Part shown: positions 53,252 to 64,000 of the stretch, in pieces
Position numbering within the stretch: position 1 is the first letter of the stretch
How the letters are laid out: the number at the start of each line of letters is the position of its first letter
The notes under the pieces: model-generated
Seen by the model: only the letters and a program-made list of their open reading frames with translations
What the model was told of the DNA's origin: nothing
The model's database searches: none
Translations under genes and position numbers: made by a program
Assembly (NCBI GenBank): GCA_949297765.1
Contig: CASFTV010000005.1
Coordinates: 66,144 to 130,143, forward strand
Origin: an uncultured bacterium
Lineage (GTDB): Bacteria > Verrucomicrobiota > Lentisphaeria > Victivallales > UBA1829
Reading direction: 5' to 3'
DNA length: 64,000 bases

Positions 53252-53644
53252 ATGAAGTTGAGCAATACCTGTCAGCGCAGGGTCATCATGGAAGAGCTTC
53301 GGAAATTGAAATGCCACCCGACCGCGGATGAGCTGTACAGCATCGTCAAGCAGAGGCTGCCGAAGATCAGTCTGGCCACGGTCTACCGCAATCTCGGGCT
53401 TCTGGCGGATGCCGGAGAGATCAAACGCATCGAACTGGCGGGGAGACAGAGCCGTTACGACGGAGACACCTCCGTCCACTACCATCTCCGCTGCCGGAAA
53501 TGCGGCGCGGTCGAGGATCTGCACATGGACCGCTCCAAAAGTTTGAACCGGGATCTGAAAAACATGCTTTCCGGCAGGATTTCCGATGTCAAGGTTGAAT
53601 TTGACGGGTACTGCATTCCATGCTACACGGAAATGCTGAAATGA
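53252..53644 (+). CDS. Fur-family regulator (PerR-like by context)
   Basis: 130 aa. SLATVYRNL recognition helix and two CxxC pairs (CRKC, CIPC). Confidence 0.85.
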   Translation: MKLSNTCQRRVIMEELRKLKCHPTADELYSIVKQRLPKISLATVYRNLGLLADAGEIKRIELAGRQSRYDGDTSVHYHLRCRKCGAVEDLHMDRSKSLNRDLKNMLSGRISDVKVEFDGYCIPCYTEMLK

Positions 53645-53706
53645 AATTTTCTACGGATTCCCCCGCTCCGCAGAAGAGAACCCCTTAACACAACAGGAGA
53701 AAAAAG

Positions 53707-54102
53707 ATGGGAAAAAGAAGTTCTGTTTTCAAATGCGCCGCCTGCAACGCGGTGATCGAAGTTCTGAACGGAGACGGATCCGCAGATGCCGCATTCACAT
53801 GCTGCGGAGCGCCGATGACCCTGATGAAGGAAAAGACCGCGGATTCCGCCACGGAGAAACATGTTCCCCTGCCGACGGCGCTTCCCTCGGGCGACACGAA
53901 GGTGGTTGTCGGCTCCACACCGCACCCGATGACGCCGGAACACCATATTGCGTGGATTGAAATCATCGACGGCGACTGTGTGGAACGGCGGTATCTCCAT
54001 CCGGGAGAAGCGCCGGAAGCTCTGTTCCAGCAGAAGCTCCGTCCGGGAGCGGTGATCCGCGAATACTGCAATCTTCACGGGCTCTGGGCAAACAATCTCT
54101 GA
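53707..54102 (+). CDS. dfx: Desulfoferrodoxin (2Fe superoxide reductase)
   Basis: Desulforedoxin-like N-domain FKCAACNAVIEV…TCCGAPM. SOR centre ligands: EKHVP, HPMTPEHHIAWIE, CNLHG. Confidence 0.9.
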   Translation: MGKRSSVFKCAACNAVIEVLNGDGSADAAFTCCGAPMTLMKEKTADSATEKHVPLPTALPSGDTKVVVGSTPHPMTPEHHIAWIEIIDGDCVERRYLHPGEAPEALFQQKLRPGAVIREYCNLHGLWANNL

Positions 54103-54122
54103 TACAAACAAGGACGGGAATC

Positions 54123-55325
54123 ATGTCATTCAAAGCAGTAAAAATCACCGACAAAGTCTGGTGGGTCGGCGCGATCGACTGGAATCTGAAGGAGTTTCAC
54201 GGGTACCATACCCACCGCGGAACAACCTATAACGCATATCTTGTGCTTGGAGAGAAGCCGACCCTGATCGACACGGTCAAGGCGCCGTTCAAGGAGGAGA
54301 TGTATGCGCGGATTGCCTCGGTGATGGATCCTTCGGAGATCAAGATCATTGTATCGAATCATGCGGAGCCAGATCATTCGGGAGCACTTCCGGAGGCGAT
54401 TGCGGATCTCCGTCCGGAGACCGTGTACGCCTCCGTCGCGGGGGTCCGGATTCTGGATGCCCAGTTCCATATCGGAGACAAGCTCACGGCGGTGAAGACC
54501 GGCGACAGCGTCGATCTCGGAGGGCTCACCCTCTCCTTTGTGGAAACGAAGATGCTGCACTGGCCGGACAGCATGTTCTCGTACCTGAAGGAAGAGAAGA
54601 TTCTGTTCTCCCAGGACGGATTCGGAATGCATCTGGCGACCGACCGTCTGTTCATCGACGAGAATCCGTGGGATGTCGTCGAAGAGGAGATGGAGAAGTA
54701 TTATGCGAACATTCTTCTGCTCTACTCTCCGCAGGTTCTGAAACTTCTGGAGGTGTTTCCGAGTCTGAATCTTGATGTTCAGTACATTGCCACGGACCAC
54801 GGGCCGGTCTGGCGCGGCGCGGATGTGGCAAAACCGCTTGCGCTGTACCGGAAGTTTGCGGAGCAGAAACCCGCGCCCCGCGCCGTGGTGGTCTACGACA
54901 CAATGTGGGGAGCTACCGATAAAATGGGACGTGCCATTGCAGACGGAATCCGTTCCACCGGAGCCGGAGTGACGGTCTGCTGCATGCACTCCCGCTTCCG
55001 CAGCGACGTCGCAACCGCCGTGATGGGGGCGGGCGCACTGGTTGTCGGCTCCCCGACGATCAACAACATGCTCTTCCCGTCCGTCGCCGACGTGCTGTAC
55101 TATCTCAAGGGACTGCGTCCGAAGAACCTGATCGGAGCGGCATTCGGATCCTTCGGCTGGAGCGGCGAGGCGGCGGTCCAGGCCGCGGAAATCCTCAAAT
55201 CCATGAACGCGGAACTGCCGGAGGAGCCGCTCAAACTGAAATTCGCTTCGTCGGAGGAAGATTTCCGGAAATGTTTTGACTACGGAGTCAGAATCGGCAA
55301 TCTTCTTCTCGAACGGACAAAATAA
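54123..55325 (+). CDS. Flavodiiron protein (rubredoxin:oxygen/NO oxidoreductase type)
   Basis: 400 aa. MBL-like diiron domain (SNHAEPDHSGA) plus a flavodoxin-like domain (AVVVYDTMWGATDKM). Confidence 0.9.
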   Translation: MSFKAVKITDKVWWVGAIDWNLKEFHGYHTHRGTTYNAYLVLGEKPTLIDTVKAPFKEEMYARIASVMDPSEIKIIVSNHAEPDHSGALPEAIADLRPETVYASVAGVRILDAQFHIGDKLTAVKTGDSVDLGGLTLSFVETKMLHWPDSMFSYLKEEKILFSQDGFGMHLATDRLFIDENPWDVVEEEMEKYYANILLLYSPQVLKLLEVFPSLNLDVQYIATDHGPVWRGADVAKPLALYRKFAEQKPAPRAVVVYDTMWGATDKMGRAIADGIRSTGAGVTVCCMHSRFRSDVATAVMGAGALVVGSPTINNMLFPSVADVLYYLKGLRPKNLIGAAFGSFGWSGEAAVQAAEILKSMNAELPEEPLKLKFASSEEDFRKCFDYGVRIGNLLLERTK

Positions 55326-55349
55326 CAACGAAACAAGGAGGAATGAATC

Positions 55350-55508
55350 ATGGACAAGTATGTCTGCAATGTCTGCGGTTATGTGTATGATCCGGCAAAG
55401 GGCGATCCGGACAACGGCGTGGCGCCCGGAACCCCGTTCGACCAGCTTCCGGAAGACTGGGTCTGCCCGGAATGCGGAGCGGGCAAGGATGAGTTCGCCA
55501 AGCAGTAA
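55350..55508 (+). CDS. rd: Rubredoxin (52 aa; below the ORF-track length cut-off)
   Basis: AAGGAGG lies 8 nt before the [55 protein letters not shown] carries both CxxCG knuckles. Confidence 0.92.
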
Positions 55509-56310
55509 TCCGCGGAAAAACAGGACCCATGAGCCGCTCGGTCTCCGACTGGAGCGGCTTTATGCTGTCTACTCGGACGCACGCTATATTTCCCCGGATC
55601 CTCTGGAGACCGTTCTGCCGTTCCGGGAGATTGCGGACCGGGAAATTGCCGCGCTGGCGGCCTCGTCCCTGGCCTACGGACGGGTTGCGCAGATTCTGAA
55701 CAGTCTCCGGATCGTGTTCGGCGTGATGGGGGGCCGTCCGGCGGATTACATCCGTTCGGGCGGACTGGAAGAGTTCCGCCGTGATTTCCGCGGATTCAAA
55801 CACCGTTTCCATACCGGAGAAGATCTTGCTCTGCTGTTCGAGGGAGTCCGGTCCGCACTGAAGCGTTACGGGTCGCTGGAAGCGTGTTTTGCCGCCGGAT
55901 TCGAACGGGAGCATGAGACGGTTCTGCAGGCGCAGGAACATTTCTGTGCGGAGCTGTGCCGGAGTTTTCCGGAAGGGGAATCGACGCTGTTGCCGTCCCC
56001 TCGGAAGGGGAGTGCGTGCAAGCGTCTGAATCTGATGCTGCGGTGGCTGGTCCGGAAGGACGCGGTGGATCCCGGCGGATGGGAGAGCATTCCGCCGTCG
56101 CATCTGATTGTCCCGCTGGATACGCATCTTCACAGGATCTCGCGGGAACTGGGACTGACGCACCGGAATGCGGCCGACCGCGAAACCGCTCTGGAAATCA
56201 CACGGAATTTCCGGAATTTCTTTCCCGACGATCCCGTCAAAGCGGATTTTGTTCTCACCCGGTTCGGAATTCACCCCGATTTCGGACGGAATCCGCTCGA
56301 AAAATGCTGA
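55489..56310 (+). CDS. TIGR02757/DUF2400-like conserved protein
   Basis: The track ORF from 55276 reads through the rubredoxin gene in another frame. ATG 55489 is the only in-frame start near the conserved N-terminus ([20 protein letters not shown]). [18 protein letters not shown]. Family recalled from memory. Confidence 0.65.
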
Positions 56311-56456: not shown

Positions 56457-56657
56457 ATGGAGTTTTTCAACGTCAAGAAGAGAAAGAAAGTCGTAATCGC
56501 TGAAAAGAATTGCAAGAAGGTCGTCTACAAGAGAGAAACTGCCAAGGGCGTCCAGGAACGCTATGCCGTCAAAGCTCAGGATGATGATGGAACCAACCTG
56601 ACGAAGTTTGTCAGCAAGGCCGACTATGCCAAGCTGAAATGCCCTGTCGCGAAGTAA
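56457..56657 (+). CDS. Small lysine-rich protein (66 aa), possible nucleic-acid-binding/nucleoid protein
   Basis: MEFFNVKKRKKVVIAEKNCKKVVYKRETAKGVQERYAVKAQDDDGTNLTKFVSKADYAKLKCPVAK. 18 of 66 residues are K/R. RBS AAGGGAGA, with its own promoter and terminator. Confidence 0.75.
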   Translation: MEFFNVKKRKKVVIAEKNCKKVVYKRETAKGVQERYAVKAQDDDGTNLTKFVSKADYAKLKCPVAK

Positions 56658-56672
56658 GGTTTTGCGAGTTCG

Positions 56673-56704
56673 GCCCCGTTCTTTCCGGAACGGGGCTTTT
56701 TTTT
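56673..56704 (+). terminator. Rho-independent terminator of the small basic protein gene
   Basis: GCCCCGTTC-tttccg-GAACGGGGC followed by TTTTTTTT. Confidence 0.85.
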
Positions 56705-56909: not shown

Positions 56910-57677
56910 TCAGCAGCGCACTCGACGGCCGAGGAACCGGATCAGTGCGTCAAGAAGGGTTGCGGGATGCGGCGGACAGCCGGGAACGTAAAGATCAGGT
57001 TTCAGGATCTCTTCAAGACCGCCGCGGCATTCGGGACTTTCCCGGTAGAGTCCGCCGGAAATCGCGCAGCATCCGCAGGCAATGACAAAAACCGGCTTCG
57101 GAACGGCATCGCAGGTTTTCCGGAGAGCGGAGAGCATATTTCCGGACACCGGGCCGGTGACAAGGATGCAGTCCGCATGACGCGGGGAGGCAACCACCTG
57201 AATGCCGAAGCGGCCCATGTCCCATGCGAGCGTGTTCAGGACGTTGAAATCGAGTTCGCAGGCAGCGCAGCCCCCGGCGGAAACCTGACGGATCTTCAGG
57301 GATCGTCCGCAGAGATCGGCGATCCCGCTGTCGGGCTGGAGATCCCGGGAAAAGGGGCTTCCGGCGGTACGGATCAGCGACTCGCGGCGGAAAGCGGCAA
57401 GATCGTGCTGTTTTGTAAAGGAGATTGTTCCGGACGGACAGGCGGCGGAACATCTGGAGCAGAAGAGACAGCGGCCCATGTCCAGGGCGACGGACGTTCC
57501 GGAACGGGAAAGCGCATCGGTCGGACACGCCTCCATACAGAGGCGGCACTCCGGCGGACAGGCGGCGGAAGCGATTTCCGGGAGACCGGCGAAGCGGTCG
57601 GGCATGCGCGGTTCGGCATCCGGGAACCTCCCGGTCCGGTATCCCTGCATCCATCTGGCTTTCAAGGTTTTCAGCAT
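56910..57677 (-). CDS. Fused 2x[4Fe-4S] ferredoxin + NuoB/HycG-like small subunit of a group-4-hydrogenase-like complex
   Basis: Start ATG 57677 after GAGG. N-terminal CPPECRLCMEACP and CLFCSRCSAACP. The NuoB-like part retains the cluster ligands GGCAACELD, ACGCCAISGG, VPGCPPHP, and carries ASPRHADCILVTGPV. Confidence 0.85.
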   Translation of the reverse strand: MLKTLKARWMQGYRTGRFPDAEPRMPDRFAGLPEIASAACPPECRLCMEACPTDALSRSGTSVALDMGRCLFCSRCSAACPSGTISFTKQHDLAAFRRESLIRTAGSPFSRDLQPDSGIADLCGRSLKIRQVSAGGCAACELDFNVLNTLAWDMGRFGIQVVASPRHADCILVTGPVSGNMLSALRKTCDAVPKPVFVIACGCCAISGGLYRESPECRGGLEEILKPDLYVPGCPPHPATLLDALIRFLGRRVRC

Positions 57678-57688
57678 GGGGGACCTCG

Positions 57689-59179
57689 TTATAAATCGTG
57701 TCCGCAGTAGGACAGGTTGAAACTCTTGTTGCAAAGCGGAAAATTGGAGATCTGTTCTCCGCGCAGAGCCATTGCCAGACCGGACCAGTTGTGAAATGAG
57801 GGATCCACGATCTTATAGGCGGAGAATGTTCCGTCGGGTCCGGTCAGCGCGGTGTGACACAGTTCACCGCGCCAGCTCTCCGTCAGAGAAACCGCGATGG
57901 AATCCGGCGGCAGATGTCCGGGCGCATGCGAGGGTTCCTCTTCGGGAAGATTTCCGATCATCTCCCGGATCAGACGAAAGGATTCCTCCAGCTCCAGACG
58001 CCGGATCTCCGCCCGGGCAAAAACATCCCCCGTCTTCGCGCAGCAGAGAGCGGGAGGAAGGAACCGGTAGCCGCCATACGGATGCGTGACGCGAATGTCG
58101 CGGCGCAGTCCGCTTGCCCGGGCGGCAACGCCGACAAGGCCGATCTCCCGGGCCGTCTCCATCGAAACGAAACCGGTATTTTCAAGGCGGTCCAGGACGG
58201 AAGGGGAATCGAACATCAAATCCAGTGCGTTCCGAAGTTCGCGGGCGGCGCGGTCCATCCGGTCAAGGATTCCGCCGAGAAGGGCTGAATCCGCCGGATA
58301 TCCGAATCCGCCGGGAACGATGAGTCCGCGTCCGAACCGGTTTCCGCAGAGTTCGGCGGTCATGTTGAGAAACTCTCCGCGAATACGTCCGCAGTAGGAG
58401 GACGCGGGCAGATAGGCGGTATCGCCGGCAAGTGCGCCGAGATCGCCCGTATGGTTTGCGATCCGTTCCAGCTCCCAGGCAATCGTCCGCAGCGCCTCTG
58501 CCCGCCGGGAGACCCGGCTGTCGGGATCCAGCGCTTCCAGAATCTGGCAGAAGGCTCCTGCGGAAGCGGTCGAGGAATCGCCGGAAACGGTCTCCATGAT
58601 CGGAAGGGTTCGTTTGTCCGGTCCGCCGCGGAGCATGGCTTCGATCCCCCGGTGCTGATAGCCGAGGGTGATCTCCAGCGAGTAGACCTCCTCTCCGACG
58701 CATTGAAAGCGGAAATGACCGGGTTCGATCACGCCGGCGTGGACCGGCCCCACCGCGACCTCGTGCGCCGCATATCCCCGCAGAGGACAATCGACCGTCA
58801 CTCCGGAAATTCCGCTGCCGGACCGGCCGGGAAAGCGGACCGGTTTCAGGCCGGGATGTCCTTCCGGGACCACACCGGTCTGCTCATGCACCTCCTGTTC
58901 AAACCGGTGGAAGCGGACACATTCCGCAGTCAGGGAATCGTAGCGGGCGCCGACTTCGGAGGAGGAGAGAAGAACCGTTCCTTCCGCATCGTCCGTCAGC
59001 ACGGCGATCAGGCGGACCGGTCCGGAAGGATCCGGAACGCCGAAAAACGAGGAAAGATTTCTCCCGGGACAGCGCAGCGCGTCGATCAGCGCCCGCCGGA
59101 ACTCCGCAACGGGAAGCAGCGGCAGGGCCGACAGCGGCGCCGCACCCGGATTGTTCAGTTTCAGAAAAAGCTCATCCAT
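57689..59179 (-). CDS. HycE/NuoCD-like large subunit lacking NiFe-binding cysteines (Ehr-type)
   Basis: 496 aa. NuoC-like N-domain, then VGPVHAGVIEPGHFRF and YQHRGIE. Where HycE has RVCGICGFAH this protein reads TVSGDSSTAS. The C-terminus reads NLSYCGHDL where HycE has DPCYSCTDR. Confidence 0.85.
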   Translation of the reverse strand: MDELFLKLNNPGAAPLSALPLLPVAEFRRALIDALRCPGRNLSSFFGVPDPSGPVRLIAVLTDDAEGTVLLSSSEVGARYDSLTAECVRFHRFEQEVHEQTGVVPEGHPGLKPVRFPGRSGSGISGVTVDCPLRGYAAHEVAVGPVHAGVIEPGHFRFQCVGEEVYSLEITLGYQHRGIEAMLRGGPDKRTLPIMETVSGDSSTASAGAFCQILEALDPDSRVSRRAEALRTIAWELERIANHTGDLGALAGDTAYLPASSYCGRIRGEFLNMTAELCGNRFGRGLIVPGGFGYPADSALLGGILDRMDRAARELRNALDLMFDSPSVLDRLENTGFVSMETAREIGLVGVAARASGLRRDIRVTHPYGGYRFLPPALCCAKTGDVFARAEIRRLELEESFRLIREMIGNLPEEEPSHAPGHLPPDSIAVSLTESWRGELCHTALTGPDGTFSAYKIVDPSFHNWSGLAMALRGEQISNFPLCNKSFNLSYCGHDL

Positions 59180-59182
59180 TCC

Positions 59183-60595
59183 TCACAACACCCCCTGATT
59201 GAACAGAACGGCCAGAGCCGCGCCGGCCGCAAGAGCAATGACCAGAGCCGCCGCCGGAATCCGGCAGAGCCGTTCCGCCGCCGGAATCCGCTCCGGAGGG
59301 ACATCGTGCGTCCCGGGTGTTCCCATGCACATGTTCAGTCCCGCCATTGTCATTCCGGCAAAAACCGCGAACAGCAGAAGAAGCACAAGAGACCCGAAGA
59401 GGAAACCGGATTCCTGCACCAGCAGATATTCCGTGACAAACAGCGGGGACGGCGGCGTTCCGCAGATCAGCAGAATGGCACAGATCCAGAGAACGGCATT
59501 GCGCGGAATTCTTCCGAACAGCCCTCCGATCTCCGCAACCGAACGGGTCCCGCAGGCCGTCAGGATGTTCCCCGCAAGCAGGAAGAGCGCCATCTTGAGA
59601 ATGGAATGTCCGCAGAGATGAAGGAATGCGACGCTCTCCAGCCCGCATCCCCAGAGAAGCGCGGCCAGCCCCATATGCTCGACGCTGGAGTAGGCGAGCA
59701 TCCGCTTGAAATCGCTCTGACGGATGATGAAGAATGCCGCCGCGGCAAGGGAGATCACTCCAAGAGCGGTCAGCAGGGAATTGCAGAACGGCCGTACACT
59801 CTCCGGCGCAATCTGACAGAACCGGACCACGGCAAGAAACGAACAGTTCAGCAGCGATCCGGAAAGCAGAGCGGAAACCGTCGCCGGCGCCTCGCTGTGC
59901 GCATCGGGCAGCCAGGTATGGAACGGGGCAAGTCCTGTCTTGGTCCCGTAGCCGGCGAGAATCAGGATGAAGGCGCCTTTGAACCAGTCGGTCTGGAAAG
60001 AGGCGGAAGCATTTGCAAGTTCAGCCATTCCCAGTCCCCCGGCACCGGCCGCCCGGGCGGAAACCGCCATCAGCATCGTCCCGAGGAGCGCGAATCCGAT
60101 TCCGACCGAACAGATCAGAAGGTATTTCCACATGGCCTCCAGCGAGCGCCCGGACCGGTGGAAGCAGATCAGCGGAGCGCTGACCAGAGTCGTCGCTTCG
60201 ACCGCCACCCAGAGCAGTCCGAAATTGCGCGCGGCGATCACAAGGGTCATCGCCGCCAGGAATCCCAGCAGGCACGGAAGGAAAAACCTCTCCCGCAGCA
60301 GCCCGCAGTTTCCTCCCTCTGCGGAAAACGCGGACACCGCATGCAGCGAAACAAACAGGAACAGCAGAGACGTTACCAGAAGAAATATGATTCCTGCATC
60401 GTCGAAACCGATCCATTCCTGTCCGGCCCCGTATAAGGAGATCCGCGAAGGGGGCAGCACGGCGCAGCAGAGCGTCAGCGCCGTATGAACGCATGCGGTC
60501 AGAATCAGGAGGACCCGGGCGGAACGCTCCGACCGGATCCGCCATGCGGCAAACGCCGCCGCAAGCGGGAAAAGAATCAGAAGCAGAGCAATCAC
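59183..60595 (-). CDS. NuoN/HyfF-like proton-conducting antiporter-type membrane subunit
   Basis: 470 aa. GTKTGLAPFHTWLPDAHSEAP and KRMLAYSSVEHMG. GTG start in a GTGA overlap with the upstream stop. Confidence 0.85.
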   Translation of the reverse strand: MIALLLILFPLAAAFAAWRIRSERSARVLLILTACVHTALTLCCAVLPPSRISLYGAGQEWIGFDDAGIIFLLVTSLLFLFVSLHAVSAFSAEGGNCGLLRERFFLPCLLGFLAAMTLVIAARNFGLLWVAVEATTLVSAPLICFHRSGRSLEAMWKYLLICSVGIGFALLGTMLMAVSARAAGAGGLGMAELANASASFQTDWFKGAFILILAGYGTKTGLAPFHTWLPDAHSEAPATVSALLSGSLLNCSFLAVVRFCQIAPESVRPFCNSLLTALGVISLAAAAFFIIRQSDFKRMLAYSSVEHMGLAALLWGCGLESVAFLHLCGHSILKMALFLLAGNILTACGTRSVAEIGGLFGRIPRNAVLWICAILLICGTPPSPLFVTEYLLVQESGFLFGSLVLLLLFAVFAGMTMAGLNMCMGTPGTHDVPPERIPAAERLCRIPAAALVIALAAGAALAVLFNQGVL

Positions 60596-61287
60596 CGGTC
60601 CGCCTCCTTTCCGGGGGGAGACTTCGCGGCAGAACCCCAGTCTCCGAGTTTGTTGAGCCGGTCGGAATCAATGTGTTCGAACTCCCGGCTGATCTGAAAC
60701 ACGGCGATTCCCATAATGAAGACCAGCACCAGAACGTCCAGCAGGATTCCGAGTTCCACGACCAGTCCGTATTCGAGGGTCATTCCGCTTCCGAAGACCG
60801 TGATTCCGTTTTCAAAGACCAGGAACCCGATGGTCTGCGTGATCGCCTTTCTCCGGGCGACGATGAGGAACAGTCCGATCAGAACCGTTGCAAACGCCAC
60901 CGGAACCGACAGCAGAGAAACGGAATGCGCCGTCAGTTCCAGTCCGCGGCAGAAGAAGAACGTCCCTCCCATAATCAGCAGTGCAATCAGGACGGAAAGC
61001 GGATATCCGACCAGCGGCTCCAACTCCCGGCAGACATGCGCCGAACGCATCGTCCGCGCCAGCAGACCGGGCAGGACAAACGCCTTGATTCCGACATTCA
61101 CAATCGCCGCGGCCGCCAGTTCACCGTGCGGCAGGGAACTCCACTCCCAGACAGCCAGCGGAAGAATCCCCACCAGAAATCCCTGAAGCGCCACCAGACG
61201 GATGCAGTGCAGAAGACGGCTCGCCGCCGCGAGGAACAGATCCAGCGCAAGAATTGCAATAAACAGTATTTCCGTCAGTCCGGTCAT
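60592..61287 (-). CDS. HyfE/HycP-like (NuoK-related) membrane subunit
   Basis: Start ATG 61287 (ATGA overlap). 231 aa, about 7 TM, with FLVFENGITVFG typical of HyfE-like proteins. Confidence 0.75.
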   Translation of the reverse strand: MTGLTEILFIAILALDLFLAAASRLLHCIRLVALQGFLVGILPLAVWEWSSLPHGELAAAAIVNVGIKAFVLPGLLARTMRSAHVCRELEPLVGYPLSVLIALLIMGGTFFFCRGLELTAHSVSLLSVPVAFATVLIGLFLIVARRKAITQTIGFLVFENGITVFGSGMTLEYGLVVELGILLDVLVLVFIMGIAVFQISREFEHIDSDRLNKLGDWGSAAKSPPGKEADR

Positions 61288-62237
61288 TGCCCGCTCCCTT
61301 CGAACACCAGCAGCAGAACCACTGCGATCAGAACCAGACAGAGCGCCGCCAGCAGCATCTGCGGAACCTTCAGAAAACGGAAACGCGCCATCACCGACTC
61401 CACGCATCCGACCGCTCCGGCGGTCAGGAAAACCCCGCAGAAATAGACCGGCACTCCATTCAGTCCCGCAAAACAGCCCGCCGGAAGAAGCGCCGTGACA
61501 AGAAACGATGCAAAAATCCAGAGCTTGAGCGCCGCCGAATACTGGATCAGCGCAAGATCCGGCCCGCCGACATCCAGAATCATTGCTTCGTGAATCATCG
61601 TCAGTTCCAGATGGGTTTCCGGATCATCGAACGGAACGCGGCAGCATTCGGCGAGCATCACGATGAAAAGCGCTCCTCCCACCAGCAGCAGCGAAGTTCC
61701 GCTGACCGTCCATGCGGCCGGCCCCATGCTGTTCAGCATCCCGCTGAGCGAAAACGACCCCGAAAGCATCACGAAAAATACCGCCGCGCCGAACAGGACC
61801 ATTTCAGAAAACACTGAAAACTGAATCTCGCGGGATGCCCCCATCCCTTCGAAACTCGAACCTGTGTCAAGCGCGCCGAGCACCGTTGCGACCCGGGCAA
61901 ATCCCAGCAGATAAAAAAACAGCAGCACATCCCCGCTGAACGCCAGCGGCGAATTGCAGAGCGCACTGGGCAGGAACAGCATCGCGCACAGCAGGGCCGC
62001 CGGAACACAGAGCGGCATCAGACGAATCACTCCCGCGGACGTGGAGGAGAACACCCCCTCCTTGCGGACCAGTTTTGACAGATCGTAATAAAGCTGGAAA
62101 AGACGCGGCCCCTTCCGTCCGGCGAAAAACGCCTTGACCTTGTTGATCACGCCGGGCAGCAGCGGACACAGCAGCAGCGAGAGAACCACTCCTCCGCCCC
62201 AGATAAAATCGTTGAGATACGCGTATTCCGGACTCAT
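61284..62237 (-). CDS. HycD/NuoH-like membrane subunit
   Basis: Start ATG 62237 (ATGA overlap). 317 aa. RVPFDDPETHLELTMIHEAMILD matches the NuoH/HycD block. Confidence 0.85.
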   Translation of the reverse strand: MSPEYAYLNDFIWGGGVVLSLLLCPLLPGVINKVKAFFAGRKGPRLFQLYYDLSKLVRKEGVFSSTSAGVIRLMPLCVPAALLCAMLFLPSALCNSPLAFSGDVLLFFYLLGFARVATVLGALDTGSSFEGMGASREIQFSVFSEMVLFGAAVFFVMLSGSFSLSGMLNSMGPAAWTVSGTSLLLVGGALFIVMLAECCRVPFDDPETHLELTMIHEAMILDVGGPDLALIQYSAALKLWIFASFLVTALLPAGCFAGLNGVPVYFCGVFLTAGAVGCVESVMARFRFLKVPQMLLAALCLVLIAVVLLLVFEGSGQ

Positions 62238-64000
62238 TCCGTCACCTCGATTCTCCCGGGTTCCCCGGACGGGAGATCCCGCTTCTCCTCCCGGAACAGG
62301 AATCCCCATGCGAGCATTGCGAGAACCGCCAGCACCATCACCAGAAGATAGACATGCAGAAATCCGGACTGAAACCGATGAATGCGGTCCGCCATCCGCC
62401 CGGCAAAGGAAAAGAGCGGACGCCAGATTCCCCGTTCCGCAAGATCCTCCGTCACCTCTTCGAATCCGGCATCGACCGGGAAAAATCCCTCCGGACGGCG
62501 GACGGTTCTCTTCGGGCGCAGAATCCCGGAAAAAAATCCGGTCAAGGGCTGAACCAGTGCGCTGCCCGTGTATTCCATGCGGGCCGTCGGTTCAGAGAAT
62601 CCGCAATCCCAGGTGGGGCGGACGGACGACCGCCGTCCGTTCGGAAGCGTCAGGCGATAGATTAGAAGCCCGGCGGCCACCAGCACCGTCACGCCGGAAA
62701 AGAGCGCGATCCGCGCGGTCAGTCCCGCAAGACGGAACATCTCCGTTTCCACGGCCTCGGGCGGAAATCCGGTAAAATGCTGAATCAGCGGCGTAAACGT
62801 CCGGCAGACCAGCGGCGCCCCCGCGACCATCCCGAATGCAAGGATCAGCAGCACCATCTGGGAAATGCGCATCCCGAGGGGGCGTTCCACCGCCTCCGCC
62901 GCCTCTTTCGAACGCGGCTCTCCGAGAAATACGGCTCCCGCCGCCTTGACAAACACCGCCGCGGCAAGACCGCCGGTCAGCGCAAGTGCGACAACCGTCA
63001 GCACCGATCCGGCAAACAGGGCGCCGCTCCCCGCCGCGACCCCGGCCAATGCGGCCATATAGATCAGGAACTCCGCAAAAAATCCGTTGAAGGGTGGAAG
63101 TCCGCTGATGGAAAGCGAGGAAAACAGAAACACGGATCCCGTCCACGGCATTCGCTTCAGCAGGCCGCCGAGCCGATCCATATCGAGCAGTCCGGTCGCC
63201 CGGAATACCGATCCCGCGCAGAGAAAAAGCGCCCCCTTGAGAAGCGCATGATTGAGAATGTGCAGGAACGCTCCAGCGCATCCGAACGCCGCCATCACCA
63301 GATTCCCATGTTCGACGCCGAGAAACCCGAGTCCGAATCCGATTCCGGCGATTCCCATGTTTTCAACGCTGGAACAGGCGAGCAGACGCTTCACATTCCT
63401 CTGAGCAAGCGCAGAGAGGACACCGCCGAGCGCTCCGGCCAGTCCGAGACAGAGAAAACTCCACCCGAACACTCCGACCGGCCCGTCGGAACTGACCAGC
63501 ATCCGCAGAATCCCGTAGAACCCGAGATTGATCATGGATCCCGACATCAGCGCGGAGACCGGCGCCGGGGCCGCCGGATGCGCCTCCGGAAGCCAGACAT
63601 GCAGAACTGGGAATCCGGCTTTCAGTCCAAATCCCGCCAGGCCGAGCGCGATCACGGCGCCCATGAACGCGGGCGGAACATTCTCCGAAGCGCCGTAAAC
63701 AAACATCAGGATCAGCAATGCGGCCCCCGCCTGACAGGAGAGCAGATAAATCCATGCGGCGCGCACAGTCTCTTTTTCCTTCCAGTCGAACGCCACCAGC
63801 GCGAAGCTCATCACCCCCATCAGCTCCCATGCGGTGAGAAATTCGACCGGCGTCACTGCGAGCGCGACCCATGTCATTGCGGCAAGCGTGAAGTTGAAGA
63901 ACCCCCAGAACCGTCCGGCAGCGGATGATTCGCCGAAATAGCCGATTGCATGAAGCGCGGCCGCTCCCCCGATGAGGAACACCGGCAGCAGGAACAGCGC
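62234..64000 (-). CDS. HyfB/HycC/NuoL-like antiporter-type membrane subunit; 5' end outside the window
   Basis: The frame stays open to position 64000 (…ALFLLPVFLIGGAA…). GLKAGFPVLHVWLPEAHPAAP, KRLLACSSVENMG, and a C-terminal extension as in HyfB. Confidence 0.85.
   Translation of the reverse strand, partial: ALFLLPVFLIGGAAALHAIGYFGESSAAGRFWGFFNFTLAAMTWVALAVTPVEFLTAWELMGVMSFALVAFDWKEKETVRAAWIYLLSCQAGAALLILMFVYGASENVPPAFMGAVIALGLAGFGLKAGFPVLHVWLPEAHPAAPAPVSALMSGSMINLGFYGILRMLVSSDGPVGVFGWSFLCLGLAGALGGVLSALAQRNVKRLLACSSVENMGIAGIGFGLGFLGVEHGNLVMAAFGCAGAFLHILNHALLKGALFLCAGSVFRATGLLDMDRLGGLLKRMPWTGSVFLFSSLSISGLPPFNGFFAEFLIYMAALAGVAAGSGALFAGSVLTVVALALTGGLAAAVFVKAAGAVFLGEPRSKEAAEAVERPLGMRISQMVLLILAFGMVAGAPLVCRTFTPLIQHFTGFPPEAVETEMFRLAGLTARIALFSGVTVLVAAGLLIYRLTLPNGRRSSVRPTWDCGFSEPTARMEYTGSALVQPLTGFFSGILRPKRTVRRPEGFFPVDAGFEEVTEDLAERGIWRPLFSFAGRMADRIHRFQSGFLHVYLLVMVLAVLAMLAWGFLFREEKRDLPSGEPGRIEVTE

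Follow-up and report, generated by a model that had tools for sequence, protein, structure and literature searches.

A six-gene Ehr-type operon in a Victivallales bacterium encodes a group 4 hydrogenase-like membrane complex without the NiFe ligands

The stretch of DNA analyzed here (64,000 nucleotides of contig CASFTV010000005.1, assembly GCA_949297765.1, from an uncultured bacterium of the Victivallales; hereafter, the window) carries between positions 56910 and 64000 six co-directional minus-strand genes, in the order ehrA-ehrB-ehrC-ehrD-ehrL-ehrS, which encode a membrane complex resembling the group 4 [NiFe] hydrogenases but with a large subunit devoid of both NiFe-binding CxxC motifs. The genes were assigned using Pfam and NCBIfam profiles, and the two agree with the subunit identities given in a preliminary description of this DNA, namely, HyfB/NuoL, HycD/NuoH, HyfE, HyfF/NuoN, HycE, and a ferredoxin-NuoB/HycG fusion. 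The first gene, ehrA (62234..>64000), encodes a HyfB/NuoL-like, antiporter-type membrane subunit (Pfam Proton_antipo_M, 6e-39; NF005086, hydrogenase 4 subunit B, 2.7e-124 over profile positions 92-665), and its frame is still open at position 64000, that is, the gene is cut by the window end. It is followed by ehrB (61284-62237), coding for a NuoH/HycD-like membrane subunit of 317 amino acids (aa; Pfam NADHdh, 2.1e-30); ehrC (60592-61287), coding for a HyfE-like membrane subunit of 231 aa (NF008556, hydrogenase 4 membrane subunit, 8.9e-18), with a weak match to the NuoK-like Pfam family Oxidored_q2; and ehrD (59183-60595), coding for a HyfF/NuoN-M-like antiporter-type subunit of 470 aa (Proton_antipo_M, 3.4e-46; NF005044, hydrogenase 4 subunit F, 2.5e-82). 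The product of ehrL (57689-59179) is a HycE-like large subunit of 496 aa, in which a NuoC-like N-terminal domain precedes a NuoD-like domain without NiFe ligands (Complex1_49kDa, 2.6e-32). Finally, ehrS (56910-57677) encodes a 255-aa fusion of a HycF/NuoI-like 2x[4Fe-4S] domain (residues ~20-124) with a HycG/NuoB-like domain (~135-255), as recognized by Pfam Oxidored_q6 (1.2e-23) and the Fer4 families; NF009053 (formate hydrogenlyase FeS subunit) covers residues 20-124, and NuoB models cover 155-266.

The genes are as tightly packed as initially reported (4-nucleotide [nt] overlaps or gaps of at most 12 nt): the junction sequences contain 4-nt overlaps between ehrA and ehrB (ATGA), ehrB and ehrC (ATGA), and ehrC and ehrD (GTGA), and the gaps amount to 3 nt between ehrD and ehrL and 11 nt between ehrL and ehrS. 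A GAGG-type ribosome-binding site precedes every start, with GAGG itself upstream of ehrB. Several N-termini in the mechanical list of open reading frames (ORFs) are too long, and the real starts were set from the junction sequences together with the gene calls on two other contigs, L001 and L002, that encode an identical large subunit (the ehrB call is found on L002). On these contigs, ehrA is complete and encodes 661-674 aa, placing its true start in the window sequence ~219 nt past position 64000; farther upstream lie a divergent DUF1275 gene, which marks the boundary, and a Mg-chelatase/ComM-like gene. The operon consists of exactly six genes, and no oxidoreductase partner was found upstream on the contigs with the identical EhrL.

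When each GTDB species was represented by one genome, scanning revealed relatives of EhrL in at least 572 species-level genomes from approximately ten phyla, and the best 80 of these, 50-69% identical to EhrL, were retained for detailed comparison (the alignments of 81 sequences mentioned below comprise the window protein and these 80). Among the relatives listed, the closest come from a human-gut metagenome-assembled genome (MAG; 69% identity) and from Lentisphaerae/Victivallales MAGs (58-59%); other hosts belong to Verrucomicrobiota, Planctomycetota, Myxococcota, Acidobacteriota, Elusimicrobiota, Geobacter, and Desulfobacteraceae. Nearly all of the ~80 related loci preserve the order A-B-C-D-L-S. 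EhrL shares 57% identity, over 99% of its length, with P0066, a protein from Trichlorobacter that UniRef names "Ech-hydrogenase-related complex," and 54% identity with its counterpart at a Geobacter MAG locus (L042). With the shared six-gene order, HycE as the best match, and no ligand cysteine, this identity bears out the initial assignment as Ehr-type, and the operon almost certainly belongs to the Ehr (Ech- or energy-converting-hydrogenase-related) family. It is a further member of an already named, widespread, and uncharacterized class, so that the enzyme class itself is not new. When 1.8 billion cluster representatives were searched exhaustively, 697 clusters were obtained at E<1e-30; among the best 150 of these, which were tabulated, the motifs G-D-[ST] and K-S-…-S-Y-x-G-x-D persist down to ~30% identity, and true CxxC/CxxC hydrogenases first appear at ~31% identity.

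Among all PDB chains, EhrL is most similar to Escherichia coli HycE (7z0s_E, phmmer E value of 1e-33), followed by Thermus thermophilus Nqo4 (3e-24) and Pyrococcus furiosus MbhL (6e-24). In HMMER alignments, S199 and S202 lie opposite the L1 CGIC cysteines of HycE and MbhL, and S490 lies opposite the first L2 cysteine. A MAFFT alignment with the genomic E. coli HycE, HyfG, and NuoCD sequences and the 80 relatives equates C241, C244, C531, and C534 of HycE with S199, S202, S490, and G493 of EhrL, the relatives having A/S, T/S, S (81/81), and G (81/81) in the same four columns. Foldseek, too, has Ser at the first three of these positions and Gly at the fourth. EhrL thus has none of the four cysteine ligands that group 4 [NiFe] hydrogenases require (L1 RxCGxCxxxH; L2 DPCxxCxxH/R). 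The by-eye alignment in which this loss was first noticed is exact in both of its strings: TVSGDSSTAS (residues 197-206; 58562..58591, minus strand) replaces RVCGICGFAH, and NLSYCGHDL (residues 488-496) occupies the former L2 region, with S and G at the cysteine positions. The L1 replacement has a family consensus of its own, E-T-x-[AS]-G-D-[TS], in which G200 and D201 are invariant. The former L2 motif is spanned by the most conserved stretch of EhrL, the C-terminal family signature FPLCNKSFNLSYCGHDL (residues 480-496; 57692..57742, minus strand). The majority of its 17 residues are invariant: N484, K485, S486, F487, L489, S490, C492, G493, and D495 are identical in 81/81 sequences, N488 and Y491 are kept in 79/81, and H494 is the main exception (75/81), whereas F480, P481, C483, and L496 reach at least 97% conservation among the 81 relatives and do not vary in an 89-sequence set.

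The AlphaFold2 monomer model of EhrL (pLDDT of 90.3) leads to the same assignment, its top Foldseek match being HycE (7z0s_E, TMq of 0.87 over both the NuoC-like and the NuoD-like domains) and the second, E. coli NuoCD. The last residue of EhrL, L496, aligns with R537 of HycE, which we take to be the residue after which HycE is cleaved on maturation; the C-terminal extension is absent from EhrL, leaving nothing for an endopeptidase to remove. In agreement with the initial observation on maturation genes in the vicinity, homologs of hypA-F, hycI, and hycH were not found anywhere in the 64-kb window, nor were hyp, hycI, or hycH found in the flanks (±10 kb) of the 80 related loci, save for one hycI-like match in L006. 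Together, these results indicate that the conventional group 4 NiFe ligand set is lost and that the core interpretation as an Ehr-type complex holds.

The remainder of the machinery is preserved, as the preliminary description had proposed in speaking of an intact electron wire and antiporter module. The ligands of the proximal (N2-like) [4Fe-4S] cluster of EhrS (C137, C140, C204, and C234; 56976..57269, minus strand) are invariant in 41 aligned relatives and correspond to the motifs GGCxxCE, GxC…GG, and GCPP in HycG, HyfI, and NuoB. Both ferredoxin-type motifs (57438..57560, minus strand) are present as well, namely, C40-x3-C44-x2-C47-x3-C51-P, with the uncommon Cx3Cx2Cx3CP spacing typical of the Ehr family, and C70-x2-C73-x2-C76-x3-C80-P. 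They are intact here and in most relatives and degenerate in L018, L054, L065, and L066; the ferredoxin-NuoB fusion itself is kept among the relatives. Of the residues characteristic of NuoL/M/N, ehrA retains Glu132 of transmembrane helix (TM) 5, Lys200 of TM7, and Glu383 of TM12, and ehrD retains the equivalent Glu133, Lys219, and Glu389; in both, the TM8 Lys is replaced by Asn, which in ehrD is Asn250, as in E. coli HyfF.

These observations bear on the possibility that the operon is a decayed, nonfunctional hydrogenase relic or a redox-independent, Mrp-like cation antiporter in which the FeS clusters are structural or regulatory. The loss of all four catalytic cysteines and the presence of Mrp-like subunits would be compatible with such an origin, and a 2026 paper takes the Ehr of Geobacter KN400 to be nonfunctional (PMC13194489). 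Nevertheless, none of the six ORFs is disrupted, the genes are translationally coupled, each of the 12 FeS ligands is conserved, gene order and 134 of the 496 EhrL positions (at least 97% conserved across phyla) are kept over approximately ten phyla, the replaced ligand positions S490 and G493 are themselves invariant (81/81), and all Ehr subunits have been detected in the proteome of Geobacter sulfurreducens (PMC7894505). The near-invariant EhrL positions, the kept FeS ligands and antiporter residues, and the Geobacter detection argue for a functional complex under selection. A decaying pseudogene cluster was rejected given the conservation of gene order, EhrL positions, FeS ligands, and antiporter residues, and the relic version is strongly disfavored on the strength of these sequence comparisons; we regard this alternative, in either form, as very improbable.

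The conservation pattern of EhrL suggests that the former NiFe pocket is remodeled rather than degraded or simply empty. A family-specific invariant set consists of GD[ST], KS…SYCGHD, Glu152, and Arg437, in which residues kept from the hydrogenases, namely, Glu152 of the β1-β2 loop (Gly in complex I), the PRG-type Arg437, His243, and Asp495, stand beside invariant new ones, Asp201, Ser490, and Tyr491. The statement that there is no NiFe site therefore holds with respect to the ligands, all of which are lost, but the site is not simply vacant, given the family-specific motif with a cysteine one residue before the lost position of HycE C534. The retained and the new residues alike speak for proton-coupled chemistry at the old site. 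Conservation peaks in two segments of the protein, residues 147-153 and 492-496, which are also the only well-conserved parts modeled by AlphaFold2 with low confidence, as would fit loops that are ordered only upon contact with another subunit or with the substrate.

Six cysteines of EhrL (160, 263, 278, 441, 483, and 492), none of which is a cysteine in HycE, HyfG, NuoCD, or MbhL, each show at least 97% conservation among the 81 closest relatives, which form a Geobacter/Lentisphaerota-type clade, and C160, C278, C441, C483, and C492 occur without exception in the 89-sequence set. Among 102 cluster representatives, C160, C278, C483, and C492 co-occur with odds ratios of 3-21 and C263 and C441 with an odds ratio of 13, statistics that are inflated by phylogeny. 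Conceivably, these residues form a new cysteine-based center, either an additional metal or FeS site or a redox thiol pair next to the proximal cluster, that reduces a nonquinone substrate, for example, a disulfide or polysulfide, by analogy with Pyrococcus MBS and ferredoxin:thioredoxin reductase. The co-occurring sets, the location of C492 between the two lost L2 positions, and the tail cysteine of the related Hyq complex, at position 489 in place of 492, are all consistent with this proposal. In remoter Ehr clades, however, C492 is replaced by Ser or Ala, C160 by Val or Ala, and C263 and C441 are replaced as well, with the rest of the pocket kept, the co-occurrence is confounded by phylogeny, and no sulfur- or thiol-metabolism genes are conserved near Ehr in the 80 loci, all of which makes a center of this kind unlikely. 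As a family-wide new cluster, the six cysteines are a weakened candidate, given the same replacements.

Ehr has been described as a set of group 4-like complexes without NiFe ligands and of unknown function, and the name goes back, according to later papers, to work on Geobacter (Coppi 2005) and to Marreiros 2013 (PMC6349859, PMC7894505, PMC10284858, PMC3569383, PMC4758237). The subunit names EhrA, EhrC, EhrL, and EhrS are in use for G. sulfurreducens (PMC7894505). Its Ehr (GSU0739-0745) has an orthologous large subunit lacking the NiFe cysteines and the same order of NuoL-, NuoH-, HyfE-, and HyfF-like genes followed by L and S. The hosts differ, Geobacter being a metal respirer and the bacterium studied here a probable gut Lentisphaerota fermenter. 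Unlike the window operon with its single ehrA, the Geobacter and Myxococcota loci L009, L058, and L042 carry two EhrA-like copies. In the Myxococcales loci (L009:3352-6932 and L058:3416-6969), a tandem pair of HyfB-like EhrA genes lies upstream of ehrB, resulting in a seven-gene Ehr variant, and in the Geobacter MAG (L042:2727-6833), the second EhrA-like copy is located upstream on the opposite strand. Such duplicates fit the name "EhrA-1" used for G. sulfurreducens.

Another comparison is with Hyq of Azorhizobium caulinodans, encoded by hyqRBCEFGI with the same six structural genes; neither CxxC motif is present in its large subunit, HyqG, in which three cysteines are conserved (PMC2650096, PMC3357923). 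The Rhizobium leguminosarum hyq locus (L087:3340-10896, on plasmid p2, NZ_CP071628.1) contains six structural genes in the same order as the window operon, and its HyqG is 33% identical to EhrL, with which it shares GPVHAGIIEPGHFRF, SGDS, HCG..R, the equivalents of C263 and C483, GPVHAG[IV]IEPGHFRF, [ST]GD[ST], and the C-terminal FPLCNKSFNxSYxGHDL. The HyqG-type signature (Cys258, Cys491, and Cys497, with the C-terminal FPLCNKSFNCSYSGHDL) is present in EhrL except that the tail cysteine, at position 489 in the HyqG FPLCNKSFNCSYSGHDL, is at 492 in EhrL. There are also differences: HyqI is a 177-aa protein consisting of the NuoB domain only (Oxidored_q6), without the 2x[4Fe-4S] domain of EhrS, and the first gene of hyq encodes HyqR, a short Xre-type helix-turn-helix (HTH) protein, whereas the window operon has no such regulator gene upstream. 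Because of the low identity, the NuoB-only HyqI, and the Xre-type HyqR, Hyq is a sister clade of the same superfamily rather than the same complex. RefSeq labels the rhizobial HyqG "NADH-quinone oxidoreductase subunit C."

Deletion of hyq slows diazotrophic growth, and, as judged from deletion-mutant and reporter data, both H2 uptake and H2 evolution in vivo depend on hyq, an operon that is itself NifA-dependent (PMC2650096, PMC3357923). The preliminary description had considered the class to be known only from comparative genomics; the function of Ehr is, indeed, still described as unknown, but the mutant and reporter data for the Hyq sister complex and the proteomics of the Geobacter Ehr go beyond this. 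The authors of the Hyq studies proposed an H2:ubiquinone oxidoreductase, in which, by their own account, a NiFe site is "uncertain, if not unlikely" (PMC2650096, PMC3357923), and argued that elements of the quinone cavity are conserved (PMC3357923). By extension, Ehr might be an unconventional hydrogenase akin to this "endo-hydrogenase," interconverting H+ and H2 at a noncanonical center built of retained second-sphere residues and the family cysteines and aspartate. Besides the Hyq phenotypes, the signatures shared by EhrL and HyqG and the kept E152, R437, H243, and D495 speak for this possibility. Against it, we know of no H2-activating chemistry without a NiFe, FeFe, or Fe-GP cofactor, and the maturation genes are missing from the window and, with the single hycI-like exception, from the flanks of the related loci. 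Moreover, the Hyq evidence is genetic and physiological only and comes from a background in which nitrogenase makes H2; with hyq in the nif regulon, the phenotypes could reflect electron supply to nitrogenase. Hyq is also a distant relative whose small subunit has no ferredoxin domain. We therefore consider an unconventional hydrogenase improbable.

A broader proposal with a similarly small likelihood is that the Ehr/Hyq superfamily evolved a different, still catalytic center in the same pocket, made of Asp201, Ser490, Tyr491, and Cys483/Cys492 in addition to Glu152 and Arg437. In the clade studied here, the covarying C160, C278, C483, and C492 could then bind an extra metal or FeS cluster. 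Such a center might catalyze redox reactions of H+/H2 or of other small molecules, coupled to ions and independent of the Hyp machinery, and, in most phyla, might be switched by a dedicated transcription factor of the PTS-EIIA(Ntr) type.

Comparison with better-studied systems places Ehr between group 4 hydrogenases and complex I. The E. coli formate hydrogenlyases Hyc and Hyf (group 4a [NiFe]) provide the best sequence and fold match of EhrL; in Hyf, HyfB, C, E, F, G, and H+I are the counterparts of all six Ehr subunits, and the Glu of the β1-β2 loop is common to both. Unlike Hyc and Hyf, Ehr lacks the four NiFe cysteines and the C-terminal extension and has HycF and HycG fused in EhrS, and the partners HycI, HycH, Hyp, HyfA/HycB, and FdhF were not found at the Ehr operon. 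With complex I and the 11-subunit NDH-1, Ehr shares the NuoB, C, D, H, I, L, M/N, and K/J-like modules, the second-ranking structural match (NuoCD), the absence of NiFe, and the equivalent of Nqo4 Asp139 (Asp253 in EhrL). In contrast to these complexes, Ehr lacks NuoA as well as separate NuoJ and NuoK subunits, contains fewer antiporter subunits, and, with the models for NuoD and NuoB, scores far below the NCBIfam cutoffs (for the NuoD model NF004739, 160 bits against a cutoff of 360). The P. furiosus MBS/Mbx complex is a precedent for a hydrogenase-derived ion pump that has no NiFe, uses another substrate, and accepts electrons from ferredoxin. Its large subunit (6u8y_L) matches EhrL at 2.8e-16, far more weakly than HycE does, and MBS differs from Ehr in having 13 subunits with a full Mrp module and a link to sulfur, which was not found for the Ehr neighborhoods.

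The genomic neighborhoods were analyzed by clustering the ORFs within 7 kb of the operon in the 80 related loci and by profile searches over ±10 kb. No genes for formate dehydrogenase (FDH), NuoEF, carbon monoxide dehydrogenase, hyp proteins, or sulfur metabolism are conserved near the Ehr operon in these loci; HycB matches occur in 6 loci only and are ferredoxin-motif matches at unexamined positions. These results reduce the appeal of a formate-linked module, in which Ehr would be the membrane part of an FDH-Ehr complex whose other genes are located elsewhere in the genome. Such a link is suggested by the greater abundance of the G. sulfurreducens Ehr subunits on formate (PMC7894505), by the FDH-Ehr complex hypothesized for Margulisbacteria and Saganbacteria (PMC6349859), and by the best structural match being the formate hydrogenlyase HycE. 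Given that genes of the fdhF, HycB, and NuoEF types are not conserved within ±10 kb in the 80 loci and that unrelated genes bound the window operon, we deem this alternative even less likely than a cysteine-based center or an unconventional hydrogenase.

The sole conserved neighbor is a gene for a protein of ~235 aa that combines HTH_17 with PTS_EIIA_2 and is PtsN-like, with a GIAIPH phospho-histidine motif. It is present in 47 of the ~80 loci, in many phyla, on the same strand ~300 bp upstream of ehrA (for example, L013:4143-4853 on the plus strand, L006:4247-4921, and L010:3861-4571), and in the Planctomycetales loci L050, L060, and L073, it lies directly upstream of ehrL-ehrS. The regulator was not found in this window or in the nearest Lentisphaerota loci. 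As the only conserved neighbor, it points to control by nitrogen and carbon status or ion homeostasis rather than to a dedicated partner dehydrogenase. Neighbor clusters represented in fewer than 10 loci were considered specific to their lineages; examples are a Rex-like repressor, a zinc-ribbon protein, and histidine kinases. The Rex-type repressor (Put_DNA-bind_N and CoA_binding domains) is encoded ~550 bp downstream of ehrS, in convergent orientation, at L028:12917-13744 (minus strand) and in ~7 other Verrucomicrobiota loci, and a gene for a C4 zinc-ribbon protein follows ehrS in ~7 loci. An Rfam scan of seven loci detected no riboswitch or RNA leader before the operon; a c-di-GMP-I riboswitch (56.6 bits; L042:19576-19650, minus strand), ~8 kb downstream of the Geobacter MAG Ehr operon, is probably unrelated to it.

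A HycF-like entry domain, three [4Fe-4S] clusters, a polar pocket, a NuoH-like subunit, and two antiporter-like subunits together suggest an electron path from a carrier to the pocket that is coupled to ion translocation, and on balance, judging from these sequence features, Ehr is probably a ferredoxin-linked, ion-translocating oxidoreductase. With no conserved partner gene, ferredoxin or flavodoxin would be the most economical donor. Under this scenario, such a soluble low-potential carrier would dock on the HycF-like domain of EhrS, and electrons would travel via the two [4Fe-4S] clusters of this domain to the proximal NuoB-type cluster and from there to a proton-coupled acceptor site at the EhrL/EhrS/EhrB junction, that is, the pocket that holds NiFe in true hydrogenases. 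This pocket would be lined by Glu152, Glu196, Asp201, Ser/Thr202, Arg437, Lys485, Ser490, Tyr491, Cys492, His494, and Asp495. The free energy released would drive H+ or Na+ through EhrB-EhrC-EhrD-EhrA, as in Ech, Mbh, formate hydrogenlyase, and complex I, in a reaction that is probably reversible. If the acceptor were menaquinone, Ehr would be a minimal ferredoxin:quinone pump operating beside Rnf. We infer the ferredoxin donor, the ion pumping, the location of the site, and, most of all, the identity of the acceptor. Quinone is ranked first because of the fold shared with the complex I Q module, the equivalence of Asp253 with Nqo4 Asp139, the NuoH-like subunit, and the cavity argument made for Hyq; it is, nevertheless, a tentative choice by analogy, and a doubtful one.

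Several points weigh against this scenario. The canonical quinone ligands are missing: in both the HMMER and the MAFFT alignments, the columns of T. thermophilus Nqo4 His38 and Tyr87, the residues that bind the quinone head group, contain Ile151 and Gly200, respectively. Ion pumping and ferredoxin docking are both argued from homology, no quinone-related genes were seen in the annotated part of the window, and we know of no biochemical datum for any Ehr. Furthermore, Ehr occurs in Margulisbacteria for which a quinone biosynthesis pathway was not found (PMC6349859), and the in vivo data for the sister complex Hyq point to H2, beyond quinone chemistry alone (PMC2650096, PMC3357923). Weighing all of this, an Ehr complex functioning as a ferredoxin-linked pump, with quinone as the favored acceptor, is the best overall explanation that we can offer, and we give it about as much credence as doubt.

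Ehr-type complexes, as intermediates between group 4 hydrogenases and complex I, occur in hundreds of bacterial species from gut, soil, groundwater, and electroactive settings, and this class, for which no substrate has been demonstrated, represents presumed energy-conserving enzymes that are missing from metabolic models. The window adds a gut Lentisphaerota-like member that coexists with Rnf, and the comparisons supply concrete handles on the class: a pocket signature common to Ehr and Hyq, covarying cysteines, specific Cys, Asp, Glu, and Arg residues, and the EIIA-type regulator.

The operon is embedded in ordinary chromosome: twenty further window ORFs, ftsA/ftsZ, uppS, cdsA, and phosphoglucomutase among them, are housekeeping genes that say nothing about quinones, and a horizontal-transfer island was discounted because the composition of the window is not unusual. 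The Rnf genes are located ~54 kb from the Ehr operon, on the minus strand and in the Rhodobacter-type order rnfABC (rnfA, 2060-2734; rnfB, 1207-2049; rnfC, 2-1201). The preliminary description had placed Rnf in the same window, which is accurate for rnfA and rnfB; rnfC is included only in part (its first 400 codons, from the 5' end), and the remainder of the rnf operon lies outside. Convergent with ehrS, on the plus strand, is an oxidative-stress cluster (53252-56310) that encodes a Fur/PerR-like regulator (53252-53644), desulfoferrodoxin (53707-54102), a flavodiiron protein (54123-55325), rubredoxin (55350-55508), and a DUF2400 protein (from ~55600, according to the Pfam match, to 56310); this cluster is not conserved beside Ehr elsewhere. 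The mechanical ORF at 55276-56310 stretches the DUF2400 N-terminus too far, across the rubredoxin gene. A lysine-rich ORF of 66 aa (56457-56657, plus strand) separates the DUF2400 gene from the end of ehrS; it has no Pfam match, is also a gene call on L002, and is followed by a strong intrinsic-terminator-like hairpin at 56672-56697.

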